From positions 1 through 11,381 of the IMG/VR virus record IMGVR_UViG_2703718769_000013: a DNA stretch of 11,381 bases. The stretch is one strand, 5' to 3'. Under the pieces are notes generated by a model, which ran no database searches, was not told the DNA's origin, and saw only the letters and a program-made list of their open reading frames with translations. Shown here in pieces: positions 1 through 11,381 of this stretch. Both the position numbers and the translations under genes were made by a program. Within the stretch, counting starts at the first letter, position 1, and each line of letters starts with the position of its first letter. Source of the DNA: a virus (Duplodnaviria; Heunggongvirae; Uroviricota; Caudoviricetes).

Positions 1-1119
1 TTAAATAACCAACTTAACCCATTCCTGACCTCGGGTATCGTTATAGCGATCGGTGGTAGCCTGGACTTTATGTCCCAGTAATGTTTTTGTATCGACACCC
101 TGTGCGCGGTACAACCGTTCTGACAGGGAGCGTTGTTCATGAAATGTTGGCGGTGTTTTTCCTGCTGGTGGAATTATTCCAGCCAGATCTCGCGCTTTGG
201 CGAAGTAATCGCTCAGGTTGTCTTTACTCATCGGTTTTGGTTGTTTCTGGTGCCTACTATGGATTAGGTATGGACTCAACATTCTGTCCCTGCATCCATC
301 AATAACTTCTTTTAACGATACCCCAATTTCATCGCATCGTAGCGTAAGAGGTAAGGCCAGACGCATTCCAGTTTTTCCTTGGGTTATATGTAGATGTCCA
401 TTCCATACATCTGAAAAACGCATGTGGCAAATGTCATCACGGCGCTGACCAGTAACAATCGCAAGAAGCATTGCGTTACGGATAAAGTGTTTTTCTGGTG
501 TTGCATTATAAATTTTTTGCCAGTCTTCCAGGGTGAGTCTGGATCTGGTCACTTTAGGGATCGGTTTACGGGTAGCCTCCGGAGGATTCCATCCAGGAGG
601 AACTTCTCCCGCATGCTGTGCTTCTTTATAAATATCAACCCATAATCCGCGATTTACTCTTGCTGTGCTGACCATGTCTTTATCCATCCACTCGTCCAGT
701 ATTAATGCAAAGTCTCTTACCTCCAGTTCTTTCAATGGGTGGTTTCCCAGGCGGGAAACCAGGTATGCAGCCATTCGCACTTTTTCTTTGTGGGTTGTAG
801 CTGCAATGTCTCCATTTTTCAGTCGCGAATCCTGTATTTTCAGATATCGATCAACCCATGCCTTTAATCTGATACCCCGACGTTTTGTTGCTGATGGACT
901 TTCATCAATTTTGCGCATGAAATATTCTGCTTCTGCTGCAGCTATTCGCTGATTGGCTGTTGAAGCGATTTTTTCTGCCTTGACTTTGTCTGTCCCGAGT
1001 CCGTGAAATTTTCCAGTCACAGGATTTTTATACTGGTAGTAAACCTTGCCAGTTCTGCGATCAAACTTTTCGTAAAGAGCTGCTACGTCAGTACTGTTTT
1101 TTCGTGGCCTCGGTGACAT
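1..1119 (-). CDS. int: Phage tyrosine integrase (lambda Int family)
   Basis: 372-aa ORF, stop is the reverse complement of bases 1-3 (TAA), ATG at 1117-1119 preceded by AAGGAG. Recognisable lambda-Int-like motifs: TFHEQRSLSERLY (His/Arg box) and C-terminal LLGHKVQATTDRYNDTRGQEW with the catalytic Tyr. Overlaps the upstream xis by 32 nt as in lambda. Confidence 0.9.
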   Translation of the reverse strand: MSPRPRKNSTDVAALYEKFDRRTGKVYYQYKNPVTGKFHGLGTDKVKAEKIASTANQRIAAAEAEYFMRKIDESPSATKRRGIRLKAWVDRYLKIQDSRLKNGDIAATTHKEKVRMAAYLVSRLGNHPLKELEVRDFALILDEWMDKDMVSTARVNRGLWVDIYKEAQHAGEVPPGWNPPEATRKPIPKVTRSRLTLEDWQKIYNATPEKHFIRNAMLLAIVTGQRRDDICHMRFSDVWNGHLHITQGKTGMRLALPLTLRCDEIGVSLKEVIDGCRDRMLSPYLIHSRHQKQPKPMSKDNLSDYFAKARDLAGIIPPAGKTPPTFHEQRSLSERLYRAQGVDTKTLLGHKVQATTDRYNDTRGQEWVKLVI

Positions 1120-1357
1120 GGGTTAAAATCTCCTTCAGTGCGTCATCATCGCCAGTATGAATTTCCGGCGCAATTCCAGCTTCACCCGGTCCAACAAAGA
1201 CTGCGCGGCGATCTATTAGCCAGCGACCACGAATTTTTTGTGGTCTTGGAACGATGTATCCTAGTTTTCCGTATTTCACCAGGGTAGTGTTTGTTATTGG
1301 GAGACTGAACCGTTTTGGTTTCCACTCGTCGAGCGTTATCAGGTACTGTTCGCTCAT
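1088..1357 (-). CDS. xis: Excisionase (Xis-like)
   Basis: 89-aa product MSEQYLITLDEWKPKRF... resembles the lambda Xis N-terminus (YLTLQEW...). GGAGTGA Shine-Dalgarno 6-7 nt before the ATG at 1357; an in-frame GTG at 1366 is an alternative start. 3' end overlaps the int start. Confidence 0.65.
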   Translation of the reverse strand: MSEQYLITLDEWKPKRFSLPITNTTLVKYGKLGYIVPRPQKIRGRWLIDRRAVFVGPGEAGIAPEIHTGDDDALKEILTHVTEATKKQY

Positions 1358-1418
1358 GGCTATCACTCCGGAACGCGCCAGTTGCAGAATATCAACGACA
1401 ACTGGCGACGGTTGAACA

Positions 1419-3893
1419 TTAAAAATCAGCCTGACTCGGGATCAGTTTTTGCCAGATAACTGAAACGTATTTTGCCTGGTAACGGGCGTCATCAAGTGCA
1501 TTATGGCGCTCACCTTCGAATGGAATAGCCGTTCTGGCATCGAAGTCTATGGCTTTCCCCAGCTCAACGATTGTGCGTACATCGCGATCGTTGTAGTAAC
1601 GCCACGGGCAGGGGATCCCCTGCCGTTCGTATGAACGGCGCAAAATCGTGTTGTCGAAGTTGGCTCCATTTCCCCAGACCTGAACAAAAAATTCACCGGA
1701 GTTTTCGTCGATAAATTCCCGCAATTGTAACAGTGCATCATCTAACGGGATTTCATCGGTCATAATGGCAGATTGCGCTTCGCGTGATTGCTTAAGCCAC
1801 CATTTAATGGTGTCCCGATCAATGACTCCGCCAGCAGTTTCCAGATCGATAGTCTTACTAAATTCCGGTCCCATATCTCCGGTTTGCGGATCGAAAAATA
1901 TTGCACCTATTGAGATGATCGGGGCATCAGGATTTTTTCCCATGGTTTCAAGGTCGATCATTAGATGGTCACACGTCCTGCTGGTGGATGTGATTTCTTG
2001 ATGACTGTTCACCTTAATTGAGTGATCTGCCGTCTCGCCAGTTTCATTATCGCTATCGTGATGCTGATTGCCGCCAGTGTTCTCCTTGTGTGGATGTTCA
2101 GCGCCTTCCATTTTCTCCGGATCATCTTCCTGAACTTCAACCTGATACTCTTCATCGAATGTTTCCTGGTATGTTGCGTCGCCCATCACCGCGCCACAAT
2201 CAGGGCAGTTGCCGCCGTCGGTCTGACCGCAGGCGGTGCAGACTTTTTCCACTTCCTGTTGCGCCACTGGTTCAGGCTGTTTCGTTTCTGGCTCGTTTTG
2301 TAACGCATTTGGGCTGTTTTGTTCCGCTTTTTGGTAGTTCCGTTCCGATTCATGCTGGTTCTGGTTTACAGAATCGCGGGTCTGGATCCCCTTAACCCAT
2401 TTCGGATCATTCGGGTCGCTAATCCCTGCAACAAATTCTCCGCGAGAGGCAGCAAGCAACTTATCGGCGTCAGGCTGGCTGATATTGGCTGCCTGCATAA
2501 TTTTGTTTACTTCGTCAGCGGTAACTTTTACCGGCTCTGGTTGTGCGGTCGTGTCAGATGCACCAGTATTTTGTTGTGAACCTGAGTATGTACTGTTTTT
2601 GCGGGCGAAATATTCTTCTTTCGTGATTTCAGTAGCCCCGGCAGCCAGTGCCTTATCCAGACCAGAAAGTTTGTTTGCGCGACCGTATTTTTCGCCATCC
2701 TTGTCGGTGAAGAGGAAGTAGAACGGCCCCTCACGCTCTACAGATGATTCGACTTCCACTTTGCATTCGGTTTTTTCGTTGTCCTGAATTGCCGTTTCCA
2801 CTGCGTCAGTTTCTGGTACTGGCGACGAGAGAGTATTAGCTGTGCCCTGATTTGTTCCTTCGTCATCTTCAAACACGCCCTTTGTAGTCAGGTATTCAGT
2901 GATGTATTTGTTCAGTGCCACGGGATCTTTGTGAATGTCGATCGGGCGTTCACGGACAAGGCCAAAAATAGTCTGGCGGCTGTAGCGAAGCGCATCAGGT
3001 TGTTTGCGCATTGATGCGGAGATGCGCTTCCAGTCTTCGCGATCTCTGGCGATAATTTCATTTTTAGCCCAGCGAAGGATGCTGCCGTCAATGTTTCCGG
3101 CATCCGCATCACCAGGCCAGAGATAGTAGGCCAGCTCCCTGTCCAGGGTTTTCCATGTCTGCTTGTATTCGCGATGAATGGCGGCAGTTACAGGAGGGAT
3201 TTTTTCTGCTGGGTTTTCAGTGTGCTGTCGGTTGGCTTTGGCGCGGGCAAGATCAACAACAGACGTGTATTTTCCAGTCTCTTTGCGCTCTGCGTCCTGC
3301 CGTTTTTTCCAGTTACGTAATTCAGCCTGAATTTCGGGCCATTTGGTACCCGGCTTACATTTGTGTTTAACCCATCCGATAGCGAACAGTTTGCGTTCCG
3401 GATACATAGCGTTAATTTCAGGCGTTTTCATCAGTGCTTCAACGATATGCCCGTCAAAGGTAGCCACGTCTTCTTGCAGTAATTCCTGCGCGTCAATCGC
3501 CATATCAACGGTGATGTTTTCACATGTACCGAACTTAACTAGGGCCGCGTTCTGTACTTCAAGGGACAGCTTGTCAAAATTGACGTTAATAGGATCGGAT
3601 TCTGGTTCGACCGGAATAAAGGAAGCGGATTCCTCATCCCAGCGGTTTTCCTGCATATATTCGGTATCCCAGGAGTCGATAGCAGGGCGGGGCATGCCGG
3701 GTTTATCTTCGCAGACAAGAAATTTATAAGCGCAGTCCTGAGCAGCAGGATATTGCTCCAGGAATTGCCAGGTAAATTTGGCACGGGCGCGGCGTTCATC
3801 ACCGGCTTCAATGGCAGTGGCTACAGCAACTGCGCCCTCTTCTTTTATTGCCTGTTCGTCCGGAATGGCGGCGCAAATAAAGACTTTACTCAT
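1419..3893 (-). CDS. RecE-like prophage exonuclease (exodeoxyribonuclease VIII family) with C-terminal DEDDh (DnaQ-like) 3'-5' exonuclease domain
   Basis: 824-aa ORF, ATG at 3891-3893 with GAGGT upstream. The last ~180 aa carry the three DEDDh motifs directly visible in the translation: MIDLETMG (Exo I), VWGNGANFD (Exo II), HNALDDARY (Exo III). Central CxxC-x7-CxxC (CTACGQTDGGNCPDCG) and long acidic low-complexity linkers. The segment LLAASRGEFVAGISDPNDPKWVKGIQTRD matches what I recall of RecE-family prophage exonucleases (memory only). Sits between xis and the dicB module, where ydfE/recE sit in Qin/Rac. Confidence 0.7.
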   Translation of the reverse strand: MSKVFICAAIPDEQAIKEEGAVAVATAIEAGDERRARAKFTWQFLEQYPAAQDCAYKFLVCEDKPGMPRPAIDSWDTEYMQENRWDEESASFIPVEPESDPINVNFDKLSLEVQNAALVKFGTCENITVDMAIDAQELLQEDVATFDGHIVEALMKTPEINAMYPERKLFAIGWVKHKCKPGTKWPEIQAELRNWKKRQDAERKETGKYTSVVDLARAKANRQHTENPAEKIPPVTAAIHREYKQTWKTLDRELAYYLWPGDADAGNIDGSILRWAKNEIIARDREDWKRISASMRKQPDALRYSRQTIFGLVRERPIDIHKDPVALNKYITEYLTTKGVFEDDEGTNQGTANTLSSPVPETDAVETAIQDNEKTECKVEVESSVEREGPFYFLFTDKDGEKYGRANKLSGLDKALAAGATEITKEEYFARKNSTYSGSQQNTGASDTTAQPEPVKVTADEVNKIMQAANISQPDADKLLAASRGEFVAGISDPNDPKWVKGIQTRDSVNQNQHESERNYQKAEQNSPNALQNEPETKQPEPVAQQEVEKVCTACGQTDGGNCPDCGAVMGDATYQETFDEEYQVEVQEDDPEKMEGAEHPHKENTGGNQHHDSDNETGETADHSIKVNSHQEITSTSRTCDHLMIDLETMGKNPDAPIISIGAIFFDPQTGDMGPEFSKTIDLETAGGVIDRDTIKWWLKQSREAQSAIMTDEIPLDDALLQLREFIDENSGEFFVQVWGNGANFDNTILRRSYERQGIPCPWRYYNDRDVRTIVELGKAIDFDARTAIPFEGERHNALDDARYQAKYVSVIWQKLIPSQADF

Positions 3894-3986
3894 TTTGTTT
3901 TAACCTCATTACAGATTTAAGGGTGAACAAATCCCTGCCATTGCTGGCATATAAAAATGAAACCGGATATTAATTACGGTGCTGTT

Positions 3987-4178
3987 TTAAAGTCCTGCCG
4001 GTATTTCGTTATTATTAGTGTGAGTAGTTTTATCTACCGGATAACAGTTACCGGGAATTTTTTGTTCTGATGCTGCAGCCATGCATTCTTTCATTGAACC
4101 GTATAAGCCAGTCACCAGCTCAAGAGATTCGCCGGAAACAAGATAAACTGTCAGAACGAGTGCAAATGTTGTATTCAT
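3987..4178 (-). CDS. ydfD: YdfD-like small lysis protein (63 aa, N-terminal hydrophobic segment)
   Basis: 63-aa ORF MNTTFALVLTVYLVSG... immediately downstream of dicB with an ATGA start/stop overlap (4175-4178); AAGGA Shine-Dalgarno. Same size and position as ydfD of the Qin prophage; the family assignment is from memory. Confidence 0.65.
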   Translation of the reverse strand: MNTTFALVLTVYLVSGESLELVTGLYGSMKECMAAASEQKIPGNCYPVDKTTHTNNNEIPAGL

Positions 4179-4363
4179 TGTTTATATCCTTTTTGCAGCA
4201 GGTCCAGACGAGCCAGCATTGAAGGAATGCATACTTCATTTAACAGGTCCTGCTCGAGTTTTCTCTGCTTAATGGCGTCTTCAATAAATGTTTTGTCTCC
4301 AGTGATAACGCCAATTTCGAAACGAAGTTCAGACGTGCTGGCATTACATGATAACTTTTCCAT
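4175..4363 (-). CDS. dicB: Cell-division inhibitor DicB
   Basis: Internal ATG at 4361-4363 of the 97-aa track ORF gives a 62-aa protein MEKLSCNASTSELRFEIGVITGDKTFIEDAIKQRKLEQDLLNEVCIPSMLARLDLLQKGYKQ. This aligns along its full length with E. coli DicB as I recall it (…FEIGV…TEDAINKRKQERELLNKICIVSMLARL…). The longer 97-aa form is rejected because DicB is 62 aa. Confidence 0.85.
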   Translation of the reverse strand: MEKLSCNASTSELRFEIGVITGDKTFIEDAIKQRKLEQDLLNEVCIPSMLARLDLLQKGYKQ

Positions 4364-4533
4364 TATCGCGTCCTCAACAATGAATTTTGTGATGCGGTGC
4401 CTGGTGCCTCCAGGTGACGTTAACCAGTTAACAATTAACGCCGGATACAGAGAATCCACCCATAACACTGTTTTTGGTTTTAACTGTTCCGCGTGCGCTG
4501 AGCCGCATTCACCGCATCACAAAATTCACTTTT

Positions 4534-4591
4534 AAAAAAGGGCGGCAGAGCAGTCACGGAGTAAAACTGATACCGCCAAATGTCACCAGAA
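4534..4591 (-). ncRNA. dicF: DicF small regulatory RNA (Hfq-dependent sRNA repressing ftsZ)
   Basis: Minus strand reads TTCTGGTGACATTTGGCGGTATCAGTTTTACTCCGTGACTGCTCTGCCGCCCTTTTTT, nearly identical to K-12 DicF as I remember it, ending in a GC stem plus U-tract. Lies about 170 nt upstream of dicB, the conserved arrangement. Ends are approximate (a few nt). Confidence 0.8.
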
Positions 4592-4868
4592 TATTGATAA
4601 CAGAGGGCGTTGTAGCGGGGTTGTCACTTAAGCGTATGGTCAACCTGACAACCCGGTGTCCTCAACGGGGAAAGGCGTCCCTCCCACCCCCGCCATACTT
4701 ACCGCCGCGCCATTTCGCGGGGCGCCACAACCGGAAGCGCACGGTCGAATTAAATTTAACGACACCGTGCAGTGAGACGAACTTCGCCGTGCGCTTTCGT
4801 GTTGTGTGCCTGCTTTTAACCACGTCAGGCGAGGTGGTTTCCGTCATTCCCCAACGACAGGAAATCTG

Positions 4869-4874
4869 TATAAT
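4869..4874 (+). promoter_or_regulatory. Candidate -10 element (TATAAT) for the plus-strand 148-aa gene
   Basis: Perfect TATAAT at 4869-4874, 30-70 nt upstream of two plus-strand start codons; no convincing -35 hexamer. Confidence 0.3.
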
Positions 4875-4940
4875 CTGGATATCCCCAACGATCCAAGGAA
4901 ATCATATGACAGAGCAAAGAGCACAAGCAGGTGATGGTGT

Positions 4941-5387
4941 ATGGACCGGGATGATATTCTTGACAGAATTTTATATGGCTATTTTCTTGAGCAACTGTTT
5001 TCTGTAGCGACTGGTCGTCTCGATAAACTTCTCTCAGTAGTGAGTATTATCCTCGGTTCATCTGTCATTGGCGGATTCATTCCGGAAATTTCTGGCGTTT
5101 TTATTGTTGTGATCGCAACCGACCAAACGATTTATGGATTCGGACAAAAGTCAGGTAATGCCATGAGAAAATCCGCAGAATATTTGCAGCTTTTTGATGA
5201 TGCAGAAAAATATTCTGATTCGGAATTGAAAATTCAGTTAAAAACTCTGGGAAAAACAGATGATCATATTTGGTCATCACTTAAAGATATTGCGATCTTA
5301 AAAACACAGATCAAAATAGGCGTCTCCATCGAACAACACGAGAAGTTGCCCACAAAATCCAAATTGATGCGATTTCTTTGTGGTTAG
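4941..5387 (+). CDS. Hypothetical two-transmembrane membrane protein (candidate superinfection-exclusion / abortive-infection effector; SieB-like or SLATT-like, unverified)
   Basis: 148-aa ORF with AGGTGA Shine-Dalgarno 6 nt before the ATG. Two adjacent hydrophobic helices (LLSVVSIILGSSVIGGF, ISGVFIVVIATDQTIYGF) followed by a charged helical tail. Visibly AT-rich compared with its neighbours. Encoded on the strand opposite to the surrounding dicB operon. Confidence 0.55.
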   Translation: MDRDDILDRILYGYFLEQLFSVATGRLDKLLSVVSIILGSSVIGGFIPEISGVFIVVIATDQTIYGFGQKSGNAMRKSAEYLQLFDDAEKYSDSELKIQLKTLGKTDDHIWSSLKDIAILKTQIKIGVSIEQHEKLPTKSKLMRFLCG

Positions 5388-5412
5388 GAATATCCAGATT
5401 GTTAAAGAGCAT

Positions 5413-5436
5413 GCCGGAGGTTTATCCGTGTCCGGC
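5413..5436. terminator. Stem-loop between the convergent 148-aa gene and ydfC (possible bidirectional terminator or RNA-stability element)
   Basis: GCCGGA-N12-TCCGGC inverted repeat 26 nt after the 148-aa gene stop and about 40 nt after the ydfC stop; no clean U-tract on either strand. Confidence 0.25.
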
Positions 5437-5476
5437 GCACGCACTTCATCTGCGGAGAACTACTTGAGCTCATTGG

Positions 5477-5692
5477 TCAGTAGTTTTCAATCACTCGCGA
5501 AACGTTTAATGCCGCGCTTTTTGCCAGAGTGGTAATATCCTGCTCCGCTGACACCAGTTCTTTAGAGAGGCGCTCTTTGTAGTCAGCGGCCTGCTTCAGG
5601 TCATTAATGGCGCGTATCTTTCCGCACATCCATTCGTAAATTTCATCCTCGGTATAGTCTGGTGCGATGATGACGGGTTCTCGTTTCTGCAT
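5477..5692 (-). CDS. ydfC: YdfC-like protein (Qin-type dicB operon)
   Basis: 71-aa ORF MQKREPVIIAPDYTEDEIYEW... with GAGGAA Shine-Dalgarno; third gene of a tightly packed ydfA-ydfB-ydfC array. Name assigned by size and synteny, from memory. Confidence 0.6.
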   Translation of the reverse strand: MQKREPVIIAPDYTEDEIYEWMCGKIRAINDLKQAADYKERLSKELVSAEQDITTLAKSAALNVSRVIENY

Positions 5693-5721
5693 ACTGATTC
5701 CTCGCGGTGCCGCTTCGCTTA

Positions 5722-5850
5722 TCAGTCGTTAGATTTTGCCGAACTGGAAAGCGCCTGTTTAAACTCACTGAAGCTGAGAGCTTCTTCGCCTTCGGCAAGG
5801 CCTTCGAAGTATTCTTCGTAAGCCTTTTCCATGATTGCGTCGAAATCCAT
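5722..5850 (-). CDS. ydfB: YdfB-like small protein (42 aa)
   Basis: Not in the supplied ORF track (under 60 aa). Hand translation from the ATG at 5848-5850 gives MDFDAIMEKAYEEYFEGLAEGEEALSFSEFKQALSSSAKSND, stop TGA at 5722-5724. AGGTGA Shine-Dalgarno; start lies 2 nt from the ydfA stop. Confidence 0.55.
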   Translation of the reverse strand: MDFDAIMEKAYEEYFEGLAEGEEALSFSEFKQALSSSAKSND

Positions 5851-5851
5851 A

Positions 5852-6007
5852 TCACTCACCTGAATTTCTTTCCAGCCAGCGACGCGCGCCAGCTTCGGTT
5901 TTAAACGTTTTGCTTCTGGTATACGTCATCGCGGTGAACGTACCGTCTTGGTTTGGAAACACGCCGTACACCAGAGATTCGTTGTTGCCAAGATCGATAG
6001 TATCCAT
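5852..6007 (-). CDS. ydfA: YdfA-like protein (51 aa)
   Basis: Internal ATG at 6005-6007 with GAGGT Shine-Dalgarno gives a 51-aa protein MDTIDLGNNESLVYGVFPNQDGTFTAMTYTRSKTFKTEAGARRWLERNSGE. Size and sequence fit what I recall of Qin YdfA. The 78-aa extension has no ribosome-binding site. Confidence 0.65.
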   Translation of the reverse strand: MDTIDLGNNESLVYGVFPNQDGTFTAMTYTRSKTFKTEAGARRWLERNSGE

Positions 6008-6186
6008 GCTGACCTCATTTCCCCTTAACGCCGGGGTAGCGGAACAAAAACCTGCTGCATAGTTATTAAAGTTGAACCCTGCCGTCATGTTCTTACGCCT
6101 CGGGCTGGCTACTTAACCCCTGACCACTGCCTGGTAACTCGAAGTATTGCCCTGCGTTCTGTGGGGCGGGGTGGGTTGGTATGTAT

Positions 6187-6234
6187 ATAATGTACTTTAT
6201 GTTCAGTGTTGTAAAGTACTTTAAGTACATTTTA
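6187..6234. promoter_or_regulatory. OL-like operator cluster and candidate leftward promoter for the ydfABC-dicF-dicB operon
   Basis: Three related TGTACT-core sites: aaTGTACTtt (6189-6198), aaaGTACttt (6213-6222, part of the perfect 12-bp palindrome TAAAGTACTTTA at 6212-6223), aaGTACattt (6223-6232). Candidate minus-strand promoter: -35 TTTACA (6215-6210), 17-bp spacer, -10 CATTAT (6192-6187). Confidence 0.4.
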
Positions 6235-6305
6235 TGTGTAAAAAAATGAGATGGGAAAAAGTGAAACACAAACCCGGAGGGGGACGCTACCGGATTTATG
6301 CTGGT

Positions 6306-6725
6306 TTAAGAGGCTTTTTGTTTTTTCTTTCGTGCTAACTCTTCGTAAATTGCATTGTACTTTTGTTTTTTCTCCTCAAGAGTTTTTAAAAGTTCATCTG
6401 TCTCACTGTCAGGGAGCTCGTCCAGAAGATCAATGATGATTTTTTGTCTTGGATTTAACTCCTGATAGAAACGTACCTGTCCACTTTCTTCTGTATCCTC
6501 TCCCAAAAGATAGGTTGGTGTTGTTCCAATGAGTGTTGCTAATTCCCTTAATTTCTCTCGGCGAGGAATTGTTTCGCCATTAAACCATTTGCTAACCGCT
6601 TTTGGTGTTAATTTCATTCGACGGGCAATTTCTGCCTGCCTTCCATGTTGTTCATAACCAGCGTTTTCACAGGCTAGCGCAAGCCTACTGGCGAACTCTT
6701 TACGCGCTTTATCTTCATGAACCAT
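6306..6725 (-). CDS. dicA: DicA/cI-like XRE-family HTH repressor
   Basis: 139 aa. N-terminal HTH (GRQAEIARRMKLTPKAVSKWFNGETIP) and acidic C-terminal LLDELPDSETDELLKTLEEKK... resembling the DicA C-terminus as recalled. Divergent from the Cro-like gene and upstream of the dicB operon. No Shine-Dalgarno before the ATG; a -10-like TATCAT lies 8-13 nt upstream, which suggests a leaderless mRNA as for lambda cI. Confidence 0.8.
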   Translation of the reverse strand: MVHEDKARKEFASRLALACENAGYEQHGRQAEIARRMKLTPKAVSKWFNGETIPRREKLRELATLIGTTPTYLLGEDTEESGQVRFYQELNPRQKIIIDLLDELPDSETDELLKTLEEKKQKYNAIYEELARKKKQKAS

Positions 6726-6732
6726 AAGTTCA

Positions 6733-6785
6733 ATGATATTCGCTCTTGAATGTACTGTCAGTTCTGTTATAGAGTGTACTCAAAG
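6733..6785. promoter_or_regulatory. Divergent PRM/PR-like promoter-operator region between the repressor and the Cro-like gene
   Basis: Two TGTACT-core sites (cores at 6752-6755 and 6776-6779, 24 bp apart, the same spacing as two of the OL-like sites). Rightward candidate: TTGAAT (6746-6751), 16-bp spacer, TATAGA (6768-6773). Leftward candidate: CTGACA (6761-6756), 17-bp spacer, TATCAT (6738-6733). Confidence 0.45.
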
Positions 6786-6804
6786 TTCACATTGTGAGGG
6801 TGAT

Positions 6805-7059
6805 ATGAACCAGAAAACACTTGAAGATGTAATCAAAACTGTTCGCGTTTCTGTTGTGGCCGACGTTTGTGGTGTCAGCCAAAGAGCAATCTACAAATGG
6901 ATGGATAACGGAAAATTGCCTCGCACTGAATATACCGGCGAAACAAATTATGCTGAAAAAATCGCTCATGCATCAAACGGATTATTTTCTGCCGATGCAA
7001 TTTTAACTATTGGCAGAAATAAAACTACTACGAAAAAGCTGTTGGGAGTTGATTCATGA
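6805..7059 (+). CDS. Cro/DicC/YdaS-like small HTH regulator
   Basis: 84-aa protein from the ATG at 6805 (GAGGG Shine-Dalgarno). HTH region VADVCGVSQRAIYKWMDNGKLP typical of Cro/YdaS-type regulators. The upstream ATG at 6733 would leave only 7 bp between divergent genes. Stop overlaps the next start (ATGA at 7056-7059). Confidence 0.75.
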   Translation: MNQKTLEDVIKTVRVSVVADVCGVSQRAIYKWMDNGKLPRTEYTGETNYAEKIAHASNGLFSADAILTIGRNKTTTKKLLGVDS

Positions 7060-7481
7060 AAATCAAGCATGAGCACATCCGCATGGCGATGAATGCCTGG
7101 GCGCATCCGGACGGCGAAAAAGTTCCGGCAGCTGAAATAACCCGGGCTTATTTTGAACTGGGTATGACGTTTCCGGAACTGTACGACGATACTCATCCAG
7201 GCGCTCTGGGTCTTAATACCCAGAAGATTTTCCGCTGGGTAAAGAAAGATACTCCTGATGCCGTTGAAAAAATGCAGGCTCTGTTACCGGCGATCGAAAA
7301 GGCGATGCCGCCTTTGCTGGTGGCCCGTATGCGCAGCCACAGTTCTGAGTATTACCGTGAGATTGTCGAACGGAGGGATCGGTTGATGAAAGATGTCGAC
7401 GATTTTGTTGCGTCAGCGGTTGTTTTGTATGACCAGATGAATCGCGGCGGCCCGGCAGGAAATGCCGTGGTGATGCACTAA
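7056..7481 (+). CDS. YdaT-like protein (proposed CII-like regulator; historically annotated as a toxin)
   Basis: 141 aa, MKIKHEHI... N-terminus. Translationally coupled to the Cro-like gene; GGGAG Shine-Dalgarno. Same position as ydaT after ydaS in Rac-type prophages (family call from memory). Confidence 0.6.
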   Translation: MKIKHEHIRMAMNAWAHPDGEKVPAAEITRAYFELGMTFPELYDDTHPGALGLNTQKIFRWVKKDTPDAVEKMQALLPAIEKAMPPLLVARMRSHSSEYYREIVERRDRLMKDVDDFVASAVVLYDQMNRGGPAGNAVVMH

Positions 7482-7503
7482 AAGCACGGTGTTCGGGGGT
7501 TTT

Positions 7504-8472
7504 ATGAGCAGCAAGCTTCATGGTCTTGTCTGGGAAGGGTGCGCCTTCACCGGCATGATCTTATCCAGGGTGGCGGTTATGGCCCGTCTTGCAGACTACA
7601 GCAATGACGAGGGCGTGTCATGGCCTGCCATTGAAACTATCCGGCGTCAGATCGGTGCAAGAAGTGAATCCACCGTTAAATCTGCTATTGCAGAACTGGC
7701 GAAAGAGGGCTGGCTGACGAAGGAAGAGCGTAAGGTCGGTGGGCGTAACGTAAGCAATATCTATCGGCTTAATGTGGAAAAACTCGAAGCAGCTGCAACT
7801 GCGGCGCGTGAGGCATATAAACCGAAAAGAAAAATTATCCCGGCAAAAAATGACCCGTTAACAGTTAACCCGTCAAATATTGCCCCCTCAACGGTTGACC
7901 CGTCAAATGTTGATGGATCAACGGTTGATAAAAAACTGCGTATTAGGGGGGCGATGATTGACCCCGATCCGTCAGTATTAAAACCTGATCCGTCAGATAA
8001 AAGATCTTTTTGTCCGGACGTTTCACTGCCGGACGAAAAACGATCATCACCAGTTGAGCGATTTCTGGAGAAACACCCGGATGCGCATACCTGGAATGTA
8101 CCGAAGCGACAGTGGGGTACCCGTGAGGATGTCTCCTGTGCGCAGTGGATTTGGGGACGGGTTGTGGCGTTGTATGAACAGGCCGCCAGTGATGATGGTG
8201 AGGTGTCACGCCCCAGGGAACCTAACTGGACGACCTGGGCGAATGATGTGCGCATGATGCGTATGCTGGATGGACGTAGTCACCGACAGATTTGTGAAAT
8301 GTTTGGGCGTGTTCAACGGGATTCGTTCTGGGTAAAAAACATCATGAGTCCGGCAAAACTCCGGGAAAAATGGGATGAACTGGTTATTCGCCTGGGGCGT
8401 TCGCCCGCGCAGCGTTGCGTGAATCATATTTCTGAACCGGATACCGAAATTCCGCCGGGGTTCAGGGGGTAG
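7504..8472 (+). CDS. Replication initiation protein (lambda O analogue / replisome organiser) with N-terminal winged-helix domain
   Basis: About 322 aa from the ATG at 7504 (GGGGG upstream); the track starts at an in-frame GTG at 7489. N-terminal HTH-like region; internal DNA repeats that double as peptide repeats; located directly upstream of the DnaC-like loader. Confidence 0.65.
   Translation: MSSKLHGLVWEGCAFTGMILSRVAVMARLADYSNDEGVSWPAIETIRRQIGARSESTVKSAIAELAKEGWLTKEERKVGGRNVSNIYRLNVEKLEAAATAAREAYKPKRKIIPAKNDPLTVNPSNIAPSTVDPSNVDGSTVDKKLRIRGAMIDPDPSVLKPDPSDKRSFCPDVSLPDEKRSSPVERFLEKHPDAHTWNVPKRQWGTREDVSCAQWIWGRVVALYEQAASDDGEVSRPREPNWTTWANDVRMMRMLDGRSHRQICEMFGRVQRDSFWVKNIMSPAKLREKWDELVIRLGRSPAQRCVNHISEPDTEIPPGFRG
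7852..7999. repeat. Iteron-like direct repeats inside the O-like gene (candidate phage replication origin)
   Basis: Five copies of GAYCCGTYA (starting at 7852, 7867, 7897, 7966, 7987) plus two copies of near-palindromic TCAACGGTTGA (7888-7898, 7918-7928), followed by an A-rich stretch (7929-7937). This matches the lambda arrangement of the origin inside gene O. Confidence 0.5.
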
Positions 8473-8478
8473 CGCATC

Positions 8479-9219
8479 ATGAAAAACATTACGTCAGGTG
8501 GTGTTCTGGCAAGAGTCAGCAGATTTGTGCCGCAGGATGCAATCCATCCGTACCGTACGGTGTCGGAGTGGCGGGAATGGCAGCTTGCTGAAGGGCGTAA
8601 GCGAAGCGAGGAGGTTAATCGTCTGAATCATCAGACGCGGGTTGAAAAAATCATTAACCGCTCCGGTATCCAGCAGCTTCACCGGAAGTGTACGTTCGGT
8701 AACTACCGGGTGCAGAACGATGGTCAGCGCCATGCCCTGAGTCAGGCGAAATCCATTGCGGCAGAGCTGGAAGGCGGCTGTACGAATTTTGTTTTCAGTG
8801 GCAGGCCTGGCACAGGAAAAAACCACCTGGCGGCGGCTATTGGCAACCACCTTCTGGCGAAAGGTCGCAGTGTGATTGTGATAACAGTGGCGGATGTGAT
8901 GCTGGCGTTACATGGCAGCTACGACAACAAAAACTCGGGCGAAAAATTTTTGCAGGGATTGTGTGGCGTTGACCTGCTGGTACTGGATGAAATTGGCATG
9001 CAACGGGATACGCGTAATGAGCAGGTCACGCTGAATCAGATTGTTGACCGCAGAACGGCATCGTTACTCAGTGTGGGGATGCTGACAAATCTTAACCATG
9101 CAGCGATGAATACACTTCTCGGCGAGCGGGTGATGGACCGCATGTCCATGAACGGTGGTCGCTGGGTGACTTTTAACTGGGAGAGCTGGCGTCCGAACGT
9201 CAGCCAGCACAGGAACTGA
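8479..9219 (+). CDS. DnaC-like helicase loader (AAA+ ATPase, IstB/DnaC family)
   Basis: 246 aa with Walker [12 protein letters not shown] and Walker B LLVLDEIG; follows the O-like gene as in the lambda P / Rac ydaV position. Confidence 0.85.
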
Positions 9220-9248
9220 GAAGTAATTTTTATCCGGAGGAAATTTTA

Positions 9249-9965
9249 ATGGAAACCGTATTTGACGCACTGAAAGCACTGAAAAGAGCCTCTTCACAGG
9301 TAGTGGCATCGCGCCTTGGAATCAGCCGTGAAGATGCGGTCAACGAACTGTGGAAACTGAAGCGCCGCGGTGAAGCGGATAACAAGGGGTCGATGTGGTG
9401 GCTGACTCAGGCTGGTGAAAGTGAACCGGTGTCACCGGTACCGAAAGTGACTGCGCAAATGCTGACAGAGGCGATTGAACAACATGGCCCACAAACGGCG
9501 GATGAACTGGCACTGATGTTCGGAATTACCTCCCGCCGGGCGAATTCATCGCTGGCGATGGCAATCAGCAAAGGGCGTCTGATTCGCGTGAATCAGGGCG
9601 GTAAATTTCGTTACTGCATACCGGGCGCTGATTTACCGGCAGAGCCGGAAGCTGCATCCGTAGCGGAAACGGATGGTAAAGCCTTTCCTCAGCCAGCAGG
9701 TGTTGCGTTACCAGTCCGGGAAGCGGAAACACAGGAAGAAATGAAAACAGAAATCGTGGAAGACATTGTGAAGTTACAGCCATCGATCACCGAAACGAAA
9801 GCAGATGACCTGATTCTACCATCGCTGCATGTGGCTAACCGCGAGCTGCGCCGGGCGAAAAGTGATGTCCAGAAGTGGGAGCGTGTCTGTGCTGCGCTGC
9901 GGGAACTGAACAAACACAGGGATATTCTCCGGGATATTACCACCACCAGAGAGCAGCAGCGGTGA
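9249..9965 (+). CDS. Hypothetical phage protein with two N-terminal winged-helix-like repeats and a charged coiled C-terminus
   Basis: 238-aa ORF, GGAGG Shine-Dalgarno 8 nt before the ATG. Two similar ~50-aa segments each ending in a basic beta-hairpin-like motif. No family recognised with certainty. Confidence 0.55.
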
Positions 9966-10279
9966 GTGGCTGGAAGACGTGGTGCCGGGCGGAAATCCTG
10001 ATACTCCGGCAGTGTGCGGGAACAATGACGGTGGAATGCATCGGGATGCTTATTGGTCGTAGTGAGGCTGCGGTCAGAACGAAAGCGCGGGAACTGGGTA
10101 TTAGTATGATGTTACGGGGTGATTATCACCAGTCAGCAAAATATCCGCAGAGTGATATTGAGCTGGCGCGACAGCAGCATCAGCGTGGCGTGTCGAGGAG
10201 AGAAATCGCCAGAAAATTCGGAATGCCGTTGCGCACAGTGAATAACTACGTTTATTTCGACAGGAGGGTGTCTGCGTGA
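9962..10279 (+). CDS. Small DNA-binding protein with tandem HTH repeats (GcrA-N-terminal-like pattern)
   Basis: GTG at 9962 overlaps the upstream stop (GTGA). Two repeats of the pattern W-x2-W/E-x3-L-x5-G-x-(T/S)-x2-E-I-(A/G)-x2-(F/I)-G-R-S-x2-AV ([42 protein letters not shown] and [32 protein letters not shown]). The ATG at 10025 is an alternative start; the track start at 9875 overlaps too deeply. Confidence 0.5.
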
Positions 10280-10503
10280 AAATCCTGTATCAGGATTACG
10301 GCCCGGTGGGGCAGGTGCTTATCAGCAGTACTGTAATGGAGTTCCGGAAGCATAACCGTGTGGTGGATTCTGTGCTGTTAACCTGTCCGGGGATATCGGC
10401 GAGTCGTGCAGGTGTGTTTATTATGAAGACGAAATTATATGGCAGTAAGGCGTGGATAAAGAAGGCGTATCGTGTAGCGTTGCAGGAGGTTAACAGTGAG
10501 TGA
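10276..10503 (+). CDS. Hypothetical small protein (75 aa)
   Basis: GTG start overlapping the upstream stop, preceded by AGGAGG at 10263-10268 (7-nt spacer). No recognisable family. Confidence 0.45.
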   Translation: MKILYQDYGPVGQVLISSTVMEFRKHNRVVDSVLLTCPGISASRAGVFIMKTKLYGSKAWIKKAYRVALQEVNSE

Positions 10504-10807
10504 AATTAAAGAAATGCCGGTAGTTCGTGACGAATATGGCTACTGGACACATCCTGAATATGAAAAATTCTGTGATGGTCGGGAGAATATTTCAACGGAA
10601 GAATTTAACGCGTGGATGGAGGCAAATAATCTTCAGTGGACTATCTGCACTATGGATGAAGATGATTTTAACCTGGACGCAGATGGCCCTGATATTTCAG
10701 CATGGGAACCGGAACGACCAGAGGGCGATGGCTGGTTTATTGGTTCCATTCATGATACGGAAGATGGCCCGGTTTGTGTCTGGTTGCGAAATAAGGCTGA
10801 AGCATAA
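10496..10807 (+). CDS. Hypothetical acidic phage protein (103 aa)
   Basis: GTG at 10496 with strong AGGAGG Shine-Dalgarno (10484-10489, 6-nt spacer), overlapping the previous gene by 8 nt. Very acidic, Trp-rich sequence typical of small nin-region phage proteins. Confidence 0.6.
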   Translation: MSEIKEMPVVRDEYGYWTHPEYEKFCDGRENISTEEFNAWMEANNLQWTICTMDEDDFNLDADGPDISAWEPERPEGDGWFIGSIHDTEDGPVCVWLRNKAEA

Positions 10808-11153
10808 AGGCGATAAACCAACTAACAACTAAATACTGAAGATTTAAATCAGAAACGATTTTTATTAAATCCTTAACCGGAGGGATTCCTGCACCCTCAG
10901 AATATCAGGAGGCCGCCCGAAAGGGCGGTAAGAAATGAAACATTATTTAGAAAAAATTACCCACGAAAGAGCAGAACAACAGAGTTTCTGTTTTTCATTC
11001 TGTTTATAGTGTTGATGATACCGATATCCCCGCTATTACTGGTCTGGATAATTGGAAGGACATTTGAACCAGTTATTGAGCTATATACCGATGTGACATG
11101 GGAATCATTCAGCGCACTGCACAATAAAATTAATCCGTATAAGGAAAACTGAT

Positions 11154-11381
11154 ATGAGCACTATTACCAGAGAACGCGCGGAGATTAAATCATACATCAC
11201 AGGCTTCCTGAGCGACTCGGCGCACGATAACAAGTCTTCAGACAGCCTGCTGGCTAATGTGTTTCGTATCGCGCTGGCATCACTGGAAGCAGAGCCGATA
11301 GCAATGGTAGTGCCTGATGAAATGGATTTGCTTACCTGCCATCTCGACGGTGTAACTAAAACATATGCTGATGGCTGGAAC
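11154..11381 (+). CDS. Hypothetical protein, 3'-truncated by the window end
   Basis: ATG at 11154 preceded by AAGGA; open frame MSTITRERAEIKSYITGFLSD... runs to the last base of the window. Confidence 0.5.
   Translation, partial: MSTITRERAEIKSYITGFLSDSAHDNKSSDSLLANVFRIALASLEAEPIAMVVPDEMDLLTCHLDGVTKTYADGWN

Follow-up and report, generated by a model that had tools for sequence, protein, structure and literature searches.

The question raised by this locus is why a lone plus-strand gene lies among the minus-strand early genes of a prophage, and what such a gene might do there. The stretch of DNA that was analyzed, hereafter the window, comprises positions 1 to 11,381 (11,381 nucleotides, nt) of the IMG/VR virus record IMGVR_UViG_2703718769_000013, and it covers the left arm of a lambdoid prophage of the Qin/dicB type together with its immunity region. 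The sole plus-strand gene of this block is an open reading frame (ORF) at 4941-5387 that encodes 148 amino acids (aa), hereafter ORF148, and is annotated in RefSeq as a hypothetical protein. We propose that ORF148 belongs to a SieB-like, prophage-expressed abortive-infection or exclusion cassette that occupies the sieB slot and is degenerate in this copy, a reading to which we give about an even chance. ORF148 is a member of a real, uncharacterized family with a meaningful position and a conserved, unannotated partner.

The gene order around ORF148 was compared with that of the Rac prophage of K-12. The Rac order is racR-ydaG-ydaF (DUF1391)-sieB (plus strand)-kilS (a small RNA)-kilR, and the order in the window is dicA-like-ydfA (DUF1391)-ydfB-ydfC-ORF148 (plus strand)-dicF-dicB. 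As evident from this comparison, the layout is shared, with ORF148 at the place of sieB and dicF/dicB at the place of kilS/kilR. ORF148 stands alone on the opposite strand of the leftward early operon, with the immunity region on one side and the kil/dicB-type genes on the other, and its relatives are placed in the same way. An earlier note on this DNA, made from its letters and ORF translations, had described a gene of foreign composition, equipped with a promoter and antisense to the repressed phage operon around it, and the present results support that description for an opposite-strand gene with a promoter-like region in the leftward early operon. The guanine-plus-cytosine (GC) content is 36-38% across ORF148 vs 49-56% in the flanks, lower than in the neighbors as the note had stated, and the minus-strand placement of ydfA/ydfB/ydfC and dicF/dicB was confirmed (DicF by Rfam, dicB by Pfam and RefSeq). 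The features of the cassette are the following:

4819-4838, plus strand: hairpin ACCACGTC-AGGC-GAGGTGGT, the left edge of the sieB-type upstream module, conserved 5' of lambda and Rac sieB and of the cassette relatives.
4848-4891, plus strand: promoter-like core, consisting of direct repeats TCCCCAACGA (4848-4857 and 4882-4891; repeat family D2) around TATAAT (4869-4874).
4906-5007, plus strand: frameshifted mini-ORF remnant of 33 codons with a Shine-Dalgarno sequence, AAGGA, at 4895-4899; intact relatives encode 48-52 aa.
4923-4933, plus strand: single surviving copy of the 11-bp (base-pair) repeat ACAAGCAGGTG, the scar of a 110-nt deletion, recognized by alignment with L023, L024 and L025, which have both copies and the 110 nt.
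4941-5387, plus strand: ORF148, a predicted SLATT-like inner-membrane helical-hairpin protein (family searches, AlphaFold2, Foldseek and weak NCBIfam matches).

As judged from the alignments, the DNA upstream of ORF148 is homologous to the DNA just 5' of sieB in lambda and Rac. Positions 4800-4908 showed 74% identity to the 100 nt 5' of lambda sieB over 92 aligned positions, with an alignment score of 76 vs 18.8 +/- 5.0 for shuffled sequences (approximately 11 standard deviations above). The identity to the Rac region was 68%, and alignment A3 and an nhmmer search also supported the homology. Distant cassettes in Enterobacter, Providencia and Yersinia were 68-78% identical to the ORF148 upstream region, and the proteins there are approximately 25-30% identical to ORF148. 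The arrangement of repeat, -10-like element and repeat was also found in the lambda, Rac, Enterobacter, Providencia and Yersinia loci; the TATAAT at 4869-4874 is the -10 element that the earlier note had assigned to the gene. K-12 Qin retains the left part only of this upstream module, which is consistent with an emptied slot.

We also found other plus-strand ORFs in the ydfC-dicF slot. In mEp460 (L003 2776-2976), a 66-aa unrelated ORF follows the same sieB-type leader, and the PPompW phages (L021 2334-2567) carry a 77-aa unrelated ORF. Since other dicB-type phages have different plus-strand ORFs at this slot, the interval appears to be a site where cargo is exchanged behind a shared leader.

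The extent of the extra DNA was determined by comparison with loci that lack ORF148. DicF and the stop codon of the ydfC-like gene are 885 nt apart in the window (4592-5476), as the earlier note had said; its statement that dicF follows ydfC in Qin after only a short gap was incorrect, as this gap is 340 nt in K-12 Qin and about the same in phages Tritos and vB_EcoS-640R1. Because 4536-4817 aligns with K-12 and Tritos (92-98% over two main blocks, 4536-4670 and 4686-4763) and the homology restarts at approximately 5411-5426, the extra DNA amounts to approximately 0.6 kilobases (kb; ~4818-5410) instead of the 0.9-kb insertion first supposed. In addition, of 5426 complete E. coli genomes, 4302 carried the GC-rich part 4593-4817 and only 72 carried the full 884 nt. 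Two elements belong to the backbone and not to the insertion:

4592-4817, no strand assigned: GC-rich, structured Qin-type spacer 5' of dicF, outside the insertion (K-12/Tritos alignment and E. coli genome counts).
5413-5436, no strand assigned: stem-loop GCCGGA-N12-TCCGGC, common to loci without the ORF and homologous in K-12, Tritos, L004 and L012.

The spacer folds better than shuffles on both strands (z-scores: minus, -2.1; plus, -3.3), and it may be a processing platform for the DicF precursor. We also observed a GC content of 54-56% and a long imperfect inverted repeat (4727-4745/4787-4806) in this spacer. A retron- or DRT-like noncoding RNA partner of ORF148 in 4593-4817 was considered and rejected: the segment is in 4302 E. 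coli genomes vs 72 for the ORF, a Salmonella prophage has it across the ORF from where it stands in the window, and Rfam yields DicF only. In that Salmonella P2-like prophage, the GC-rich spacer is found at the far side of the ORF; therefore, the cassette and the dicF module are placed independently. A DicF-like hairpin small RNA variant was observed there on the minus strand, just 3' of the cassette (L004 6460-6520).

The closing stem-loop that the earlier note had assigned to the insert is present at 5413-5436, but it is not the cassette's own terminator, since K-12 carries it without the ORF and it has no T-run. As a side observation, L012, L067 and PPompW have a near-identical stem-loop (GCCGGATTC/GCCGGATGT...TCCGGCGCAC) immediately 5' of different plus-strand cargo. 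Together with the CTCCAC...GTGGAG-like segment after it, the GCCGGA-N12-TCCGGC hairpin makes up a second portable leader (window 5413-5470; L021 2253-2333; L012 5780-5870; L067 4790-4890). This leader stands directly 5' of plus-strand cargo in PPompW, a Klebsiella prophage and an Edwardsiella prophage, and it is a mere remnant after ORF148 in the window.

The hydropathy profile of ORF148 revealed two hydrophobic helices, residues 29-46 and 52-67, joined by the linker IPEIS, in agreement with the two hydrophobic segments that had been read from the sequence before. The last 80 residues are rich in lysine and arginine (14 in total) and hold the largest share of the basic residues of the protein. 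ORF148 falls in phrog_6315, a function-unknown family of PHROGs. A word-indexed search returned 23 close relatives only, and an exhaustive profile search returned 138 cluster representatives, nearly all of 145-180 aa; a profile scan of genome contigs with alignment A1 found no relatives. The relatives named by a further search are in Enterobacter, Serratia, Yersinia, Providencia, Edwardsiella, Klebsiella, Citrobacter and other genera, and all of them are annotated as hypothetical. The ratio of nonsynonymous to synonymous substitution rates (dN/dS) between clades was 0.07-0.17, and the family is under purifying selection between clades. AlphaFold2 gave an unusable model with a 9-sequence alignment (predicted local distance difference test, pLDDT, 49), and an all-helical model with a pLDDT of 93 and a predicted template-modeling score (pTM) of 0.85 with an 81-sequence alignment. 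The protein would adopt an N-in/C-in two-helix hairpin followed by a helical cytoplasmic domain.

Membership in the SieB family was tried and rejected. ORF148 had no match to PF14163 (SieB) at E<=1 and none of 81 relatives matched it at E<=0.1, while the positive controls, Rac SieB and lambda SieB, matched at 1.5e-31 and 1e-29, respectively; hhalign of alignment A2 against Rac SieB gave a probability of 0.4%. The SieB-like character that the earlier note had suggested is therefore kept for the position in the sieB slot and for the upstream DNA shared with lambda and Rac sieB, and is lost for the protein itself, which lacks a PF14163 match. The fold search pointed in another direction. In Foldseek against the viral structures of BFVD, SLATT proteins accounted for 11 of the 17 top hits by rank and for 9 of the 11 top hits with a description, with probabilities of 0.98-1.0 and TM (template-modeling) scores of 0.47-0.65. 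Additionally, 31 of the 81 relatives matched NCBIfam SLATT_4 (best E 2.2e-5) and 11 of them matched SLATT_1. These weak matches keep a consistent co-linear register (residues 36-104, for instance, pair with profile positions 34-111 of 154). PADLOC gave weak matches only for the relatives, to the CBASS (cyclic-oligonucleotide-based antiphage signaling system) two-transmembrane (2TM) effector and RTasSLATT models. The structural features of a SLATT protein, a domain of approximately 150 aa in which further helices flank a pair of neighboring membrane helices, were evident from the hydropathy profile and the AlphaFold2 model. Neither ORF148 nor any of 20 relatives checked singly reached a curated SLATT cut-off. 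We therefore describe ORF148 as SLATT-like, not as a member of a curated SLATT family, and the relationship would be a remote one.

Relatives of ORF148 were examined in 10 distinct prophage contexts, including lambdoid, Rac-like (by kilR) and P2-like (between cox and a replication gene) contexts, in Salmonella, Enterobacter, Klebsiella, E. coli, Yersinia, Providencia and Edwardsiella. In every context whose contig includes both flanks, the relative was a lone plus-strand gene among minus-strand early genes; where the context was lambdoid or Rac-like, the repressor gene was no more than approximately 3 kb away. In these 10 contexts, 230-1270 nt upstream of the relative were without a called gene. 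We found in this space, 5' of every intact relative examined, a mini-ORF with a strong Shine-Dalgarno sequence that encodes a hydrophilic, proline-rich product of 26-52 codons and whose stop codon lies 3-14 nt 5' of the main ATG. In the wider family, 38 of 38 IMG/VR loci carry the mini-ORF, with 25 distinct peptides, and so do all other intact loci that were read. The peptides share a motif of the FHVPxxKPAPxPE / QVPYRP type; examples are MTEQRAQAGGGNSTHKTVWDHIPEKNIRPKPSPTPSEERGNSNNQTSR, MSDSDKFHVPRQPAPAPEKGQGWDDEED and MSSNKPTPGSHVPYRPAPVSPPKPQK, and the intact counterparts of the window's remnant are 48-52 aa long with the motif HIPEKNIRPKPSP. The mini-ORF is unannotated in RefSeq, its peptides had no match in Pfam or PHROGs, and literature searches turned up no account of this cassette.

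Read from its conserved arrangement, the cassette is normally bicistronic, with the mini-ORF followed by the membrane protein, a feature that the earlier note had overlooked along with the loss of the first cistron in this copy, and the short spacing between the two suggests translational coupling. A switch of the stalling-peptide type is speculative; a conserved RNA hairpin hiding the main ribosome-binding site was sought by folding 11 relatives and rejected, as there was no consistent sequestration (probability of being unpaired 0.41-0.66).

The window copy differs from this intact form. Compared with the close E. coli relatives L023, L024 and L025, it is without the 110 nt that lie between the two copies of ACAAGCAGGTG, and the mini-ORF remnant overlaps the main start of ORF148. 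On the aligned sequences, the window's mini-ORF is best described as destroyed by a deletion between the 11-bp repeats. The window allele of ORF148 also carries V61D, E104G and Q133H. V61D lies in the second membrane helix and reduces its hydropathy; the 8 relatives in alignment A1 all have V, I or M at this residue. The 110-nt deletion is common to 7 of 39 close IMG/VR loci, which represent 4 alleles: one that is otherwise normal (L027-L029), one with Q69*, one that is frameshifted and that of the window (V61D, E104G and Q133H). Truncation was found in none of the 31 close loci with an intact mini-ORF. Relative to its nearest intact relative, the window shows 7 nonsynonymous changes and 1 synonymous change, vs a family-wide ratio of approximately 0.1. 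The window allele is full length and identical in three independent records (window, L001 and L026). In this small set of related loci, the decay pattern agrees with a membrane protein that, once the mini-ORF is gone, is under relaxed selection or is selected against. Because the deletion removed the mini-ORF and the three substitutions were acquired, the window copy is probably attenuated or inactive.

From these features, we propose how the intact cassette might work. The segment at ~4818-5410 would be an alternative occupant of the lambdoid sieB slot; it would be read from the upstream region of sieB type, in the direction opposed to that of the repressed leftward early operon. The first cistron of the intact cassette would encode the hydrophilic proline-rich mini-protein of 26-52 aa, and the second would encode the remotely SLATT-like membrane-hairpin protein of approximately 150 aa, translated by coupling to the mini-ORF. 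The cassette would be expressed in the lysogen, and the membrane protein would sit inert in the inner membrane until superinfection by another phage, when the membrane would be permeabilized or depolarized and the infection aborted, as is thought for SieB and SLATT effectors. Once the resident prophage is induced, the cassette would be damped by convergent transcription of the leftward operon, to which it is antisense. We further put forward, tentatively and with considerable doubt, that the mini-ORF and the stand-alone SLATT-like protein constitute an undescribed two-component abortive-infection system that has repeatedly replaced sieB in temperate phages of Enterobacterales, with the mini-ORF or its translation as the safety catch of the pore or as the infection sensor. 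The mini-ORF might, for example, encode a labile antidote, or might act as a translation-dependent switch through the conserved HVPxxKPAPxP-type motif.

Several observations weigh against the SieB-like defense reading. ORF148 itself has no match in Pfam, NCBIfam or PADLOC-DB v2 (PADLOC at E<=10), and the SLATT-type nature suggested in the earlier note is supported remotely, by the fold search and by the weak profile matches of relatives, and not by the protein of the window. The Foldseek hits in BFVD had E-values of 0.03-0.4 only, and structure searches of the PDB gave nothing specific. The 20 relatives checked singly scored 12.6-21.9 bits for SLATT_4 vs a cut-off of 55 and 14.6-15.7 bits for SLATT_1 vs a cut-off of 41, and these matches center on the hydrophobic hairpin, where composition can mimic homology. 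Known SLATT effectors act with an enzyme partner, either a CD-NTase or a reverse transcriptase; no CD-NTase, SLOG, TIR or reverse-transcriptase gene was found in the window or adjoining the relatives. A consensus -35/-10 scan did not call the promoter-like core at 4848-4891, whose -35 element is poor, and no canonical terminator was found 3' of ORF148. Finally, the decay statistics come from few loci that are related to one another.

Other explanations must be weighed against the same evidence. The most serious of these concerns the window copy alone: its ORF may be a non-functional relic, already inactivated by the deletion of the mini-ORF and by V61D, a possibility that we place somewhat below an even chance. 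The deletion shifts the frame, such that upstream translation crosses the main start; V61D puts a charge into the second hydrophobic helix, lowering its hydropathy at a site where each of the 8 A1 relatives has V, I or M; nonsynonymous changes outnumber synonymous ones 7 to 1 against the nearest intact relative, and sister leaderless alleles are truncated. The full-length ORF, identical in three independent records, and the intact promoter-like region speak against such a relic.

The remaining explanations concern the function of the intact family. ORF148 could be an entry-blocking exclusion protein like P22 SieA, T4 Imm or HK97 gp15, whose hairpin stops DNA injection while the cell survives. 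A small inner-membrane protein would suit this role, as would the placement of its gene among prophage accessory genes next to the immunity region, but the fold and profile signals indicate SLATT-type effectors and no known entry blocker, and the slot and upstream DNA are those of sieB, whose product acts late and not at entry (PMC10883804). The damaging mutations that follow loss of the mini-ORF are also easier to reconcile with a potentially toxic protein than with a passive blocker, and we consider entry blocking improbable. These same mutations could instead point to a toxin-antitoxin-like addiction or stress module, or to another membrane function that benefits the lysogen without an anti-phage role, in which the mini-protein neutralizes or regulates the toxin. 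The two genes, the short upstream partner and the tight spacing agree with such a module, as does the fate of the membrane protein after the upstream gene is lost, when it acquires nonsense, frameshift and charged-residue changes. Opposed to this, the cassette is always inside temperate phages at a sieB/rex-type position, and a leaderless allele with an otherwise normal protein occurs in three contigs (L027-L029); therefore, mini-ORF loss is not immediately lethal. A toxin-antitoxin architecture is also compatible with abortive infection. We regard an addiction or stress module without defense as unlikely, and we retain the SieB-like abortive-infection or exclusion cassette, degenerate in the window, as the favored explanation.

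The neighboring genes are listed below. The identical locus in E. coli OkiPb01678 adjoins potC in RefSeq.

1-1119, minus strand: integrase.
Next after the integrase, minus strand: excisionase.
1419-3893, minus strand: large exonuclease.
3987-4178, minus strand: DUF1482/ydfD-like gene.
4175-4363, minus strand: dicB, cell-division inhibitor, the downstream neighbor in the leftward operon (Pfam DicB, 3.6e-38; RefSeq annotation of the identical locus).
4540-4591, minus strand: DicF small RNA (Rfam RF00039, 77 bits vs a gathering score of 48, full length).
5477-5692, minus strand: ydfC-like gene, the upstream neighbor in the leftward operon (phrog_1744, 2.3e-27; partial alignment with K-12 ydfC).
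After the ydfC-like gene in minus-strand order, minus strand: ydfB.
After ydfB in minus-strand order, minus strand: ydfA (DUF1391).
6306-6725, minus strand: DicA-like repressor.

We also observed that the dicB frame is open for 97 codons from a GTG (4175-4468, minus strand), and phrog_24763 matches residues 2-70 of this longer form; RefSeq annotates the 62-aa DicB only. Between dicF and dicB, an Rfam match to STnc100 was found below threshold at 4386-4526 on the minus strand (37 bits vs a gathering score of 47). The 3' half of K-12 Rac kilS and its flank (L017 3406-3503) align with the dicF region of the window (nhmmer, 2.5e-26); from this alignment, kilS appears to be what Rac has in place of DicF at this point of the operon.

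If the intact cassette does defend against phages, it would be a compact module of approximately 0.6 kb with a SLATT-like effector that works without an enzyme partner and is controlled solely by an unannotated mini-protein, which would bear on how SLATT effectors stay silent and are then triggered. The lambdoid sieB position would then be an exchange slot in which one conserved regulatory region serves unrelated exclusion genes, and this would provide a simple rule for finding further prophage defenses. As the window copy is probably a decayed allele, an intact relative is the proper material for experiments.

Three known systems were compared with the cassette. Lambda RexB, an abortive-infection membrane effector, resembles the predicted membrane protein ORF148 in that its gene, too, belongs to a prophage accessory locus next to the immunity region. 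RexB has four membrane helices and requires the sensor RexA, and no similarity to ORF148 was detected in Pfam or PADLOC. Whereas the lambda rex genes lie beside the repressor gene, on the same strand and to the left of the pL operators, ORF148 lies inside the leftward operon.

SieB of lambda, P22 and Rac (PF14163) shares with ORF148 its slot on the opposite strand of the leftward early operon, beside a small-RNA and cell-division-inhibitor module, as well as homologous upstream DNA and a similar size (148 aa in ORF148, 162 aa in Rac SieB and 184 aa in the lambda sieB ORF as translated). The two proteins differ in having no sequence relationship. Every intact ORF148 relative examined has an upstream proline-rich mini-ORF; SieB is controlled by the internal Esc product and the sas antisense RNA (PMC7067206). 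P22 SieB is expressed from the prophage and halts macromolecular synthesis midway in superinfection (PMC10883804).

The SLATT 2TM effectors (SLATT_4 NF033632, SLATT_1 NF033634, Pfam PF18186 and relatives) differ from ORF148 in that the scores are far under the cut-offs and the partner is a mini-ORF instead of a CD-NTase, SLOG, TIR or reverse-transcriptase protein. They resemble it in the domain of approximately 150 aa with a two-helix hairpin and flanking helices, in the weak co-linear matches of the relatives, in the top fold hits and in the context of mobile-element defense. Predicted pore formers of the SLATT kind serve as effectors in type I CBASS (PMC11381338) and in the reverse-transcriptase-based system DRT10 (bioRxiv 10.64898/2026.04.29.721553).

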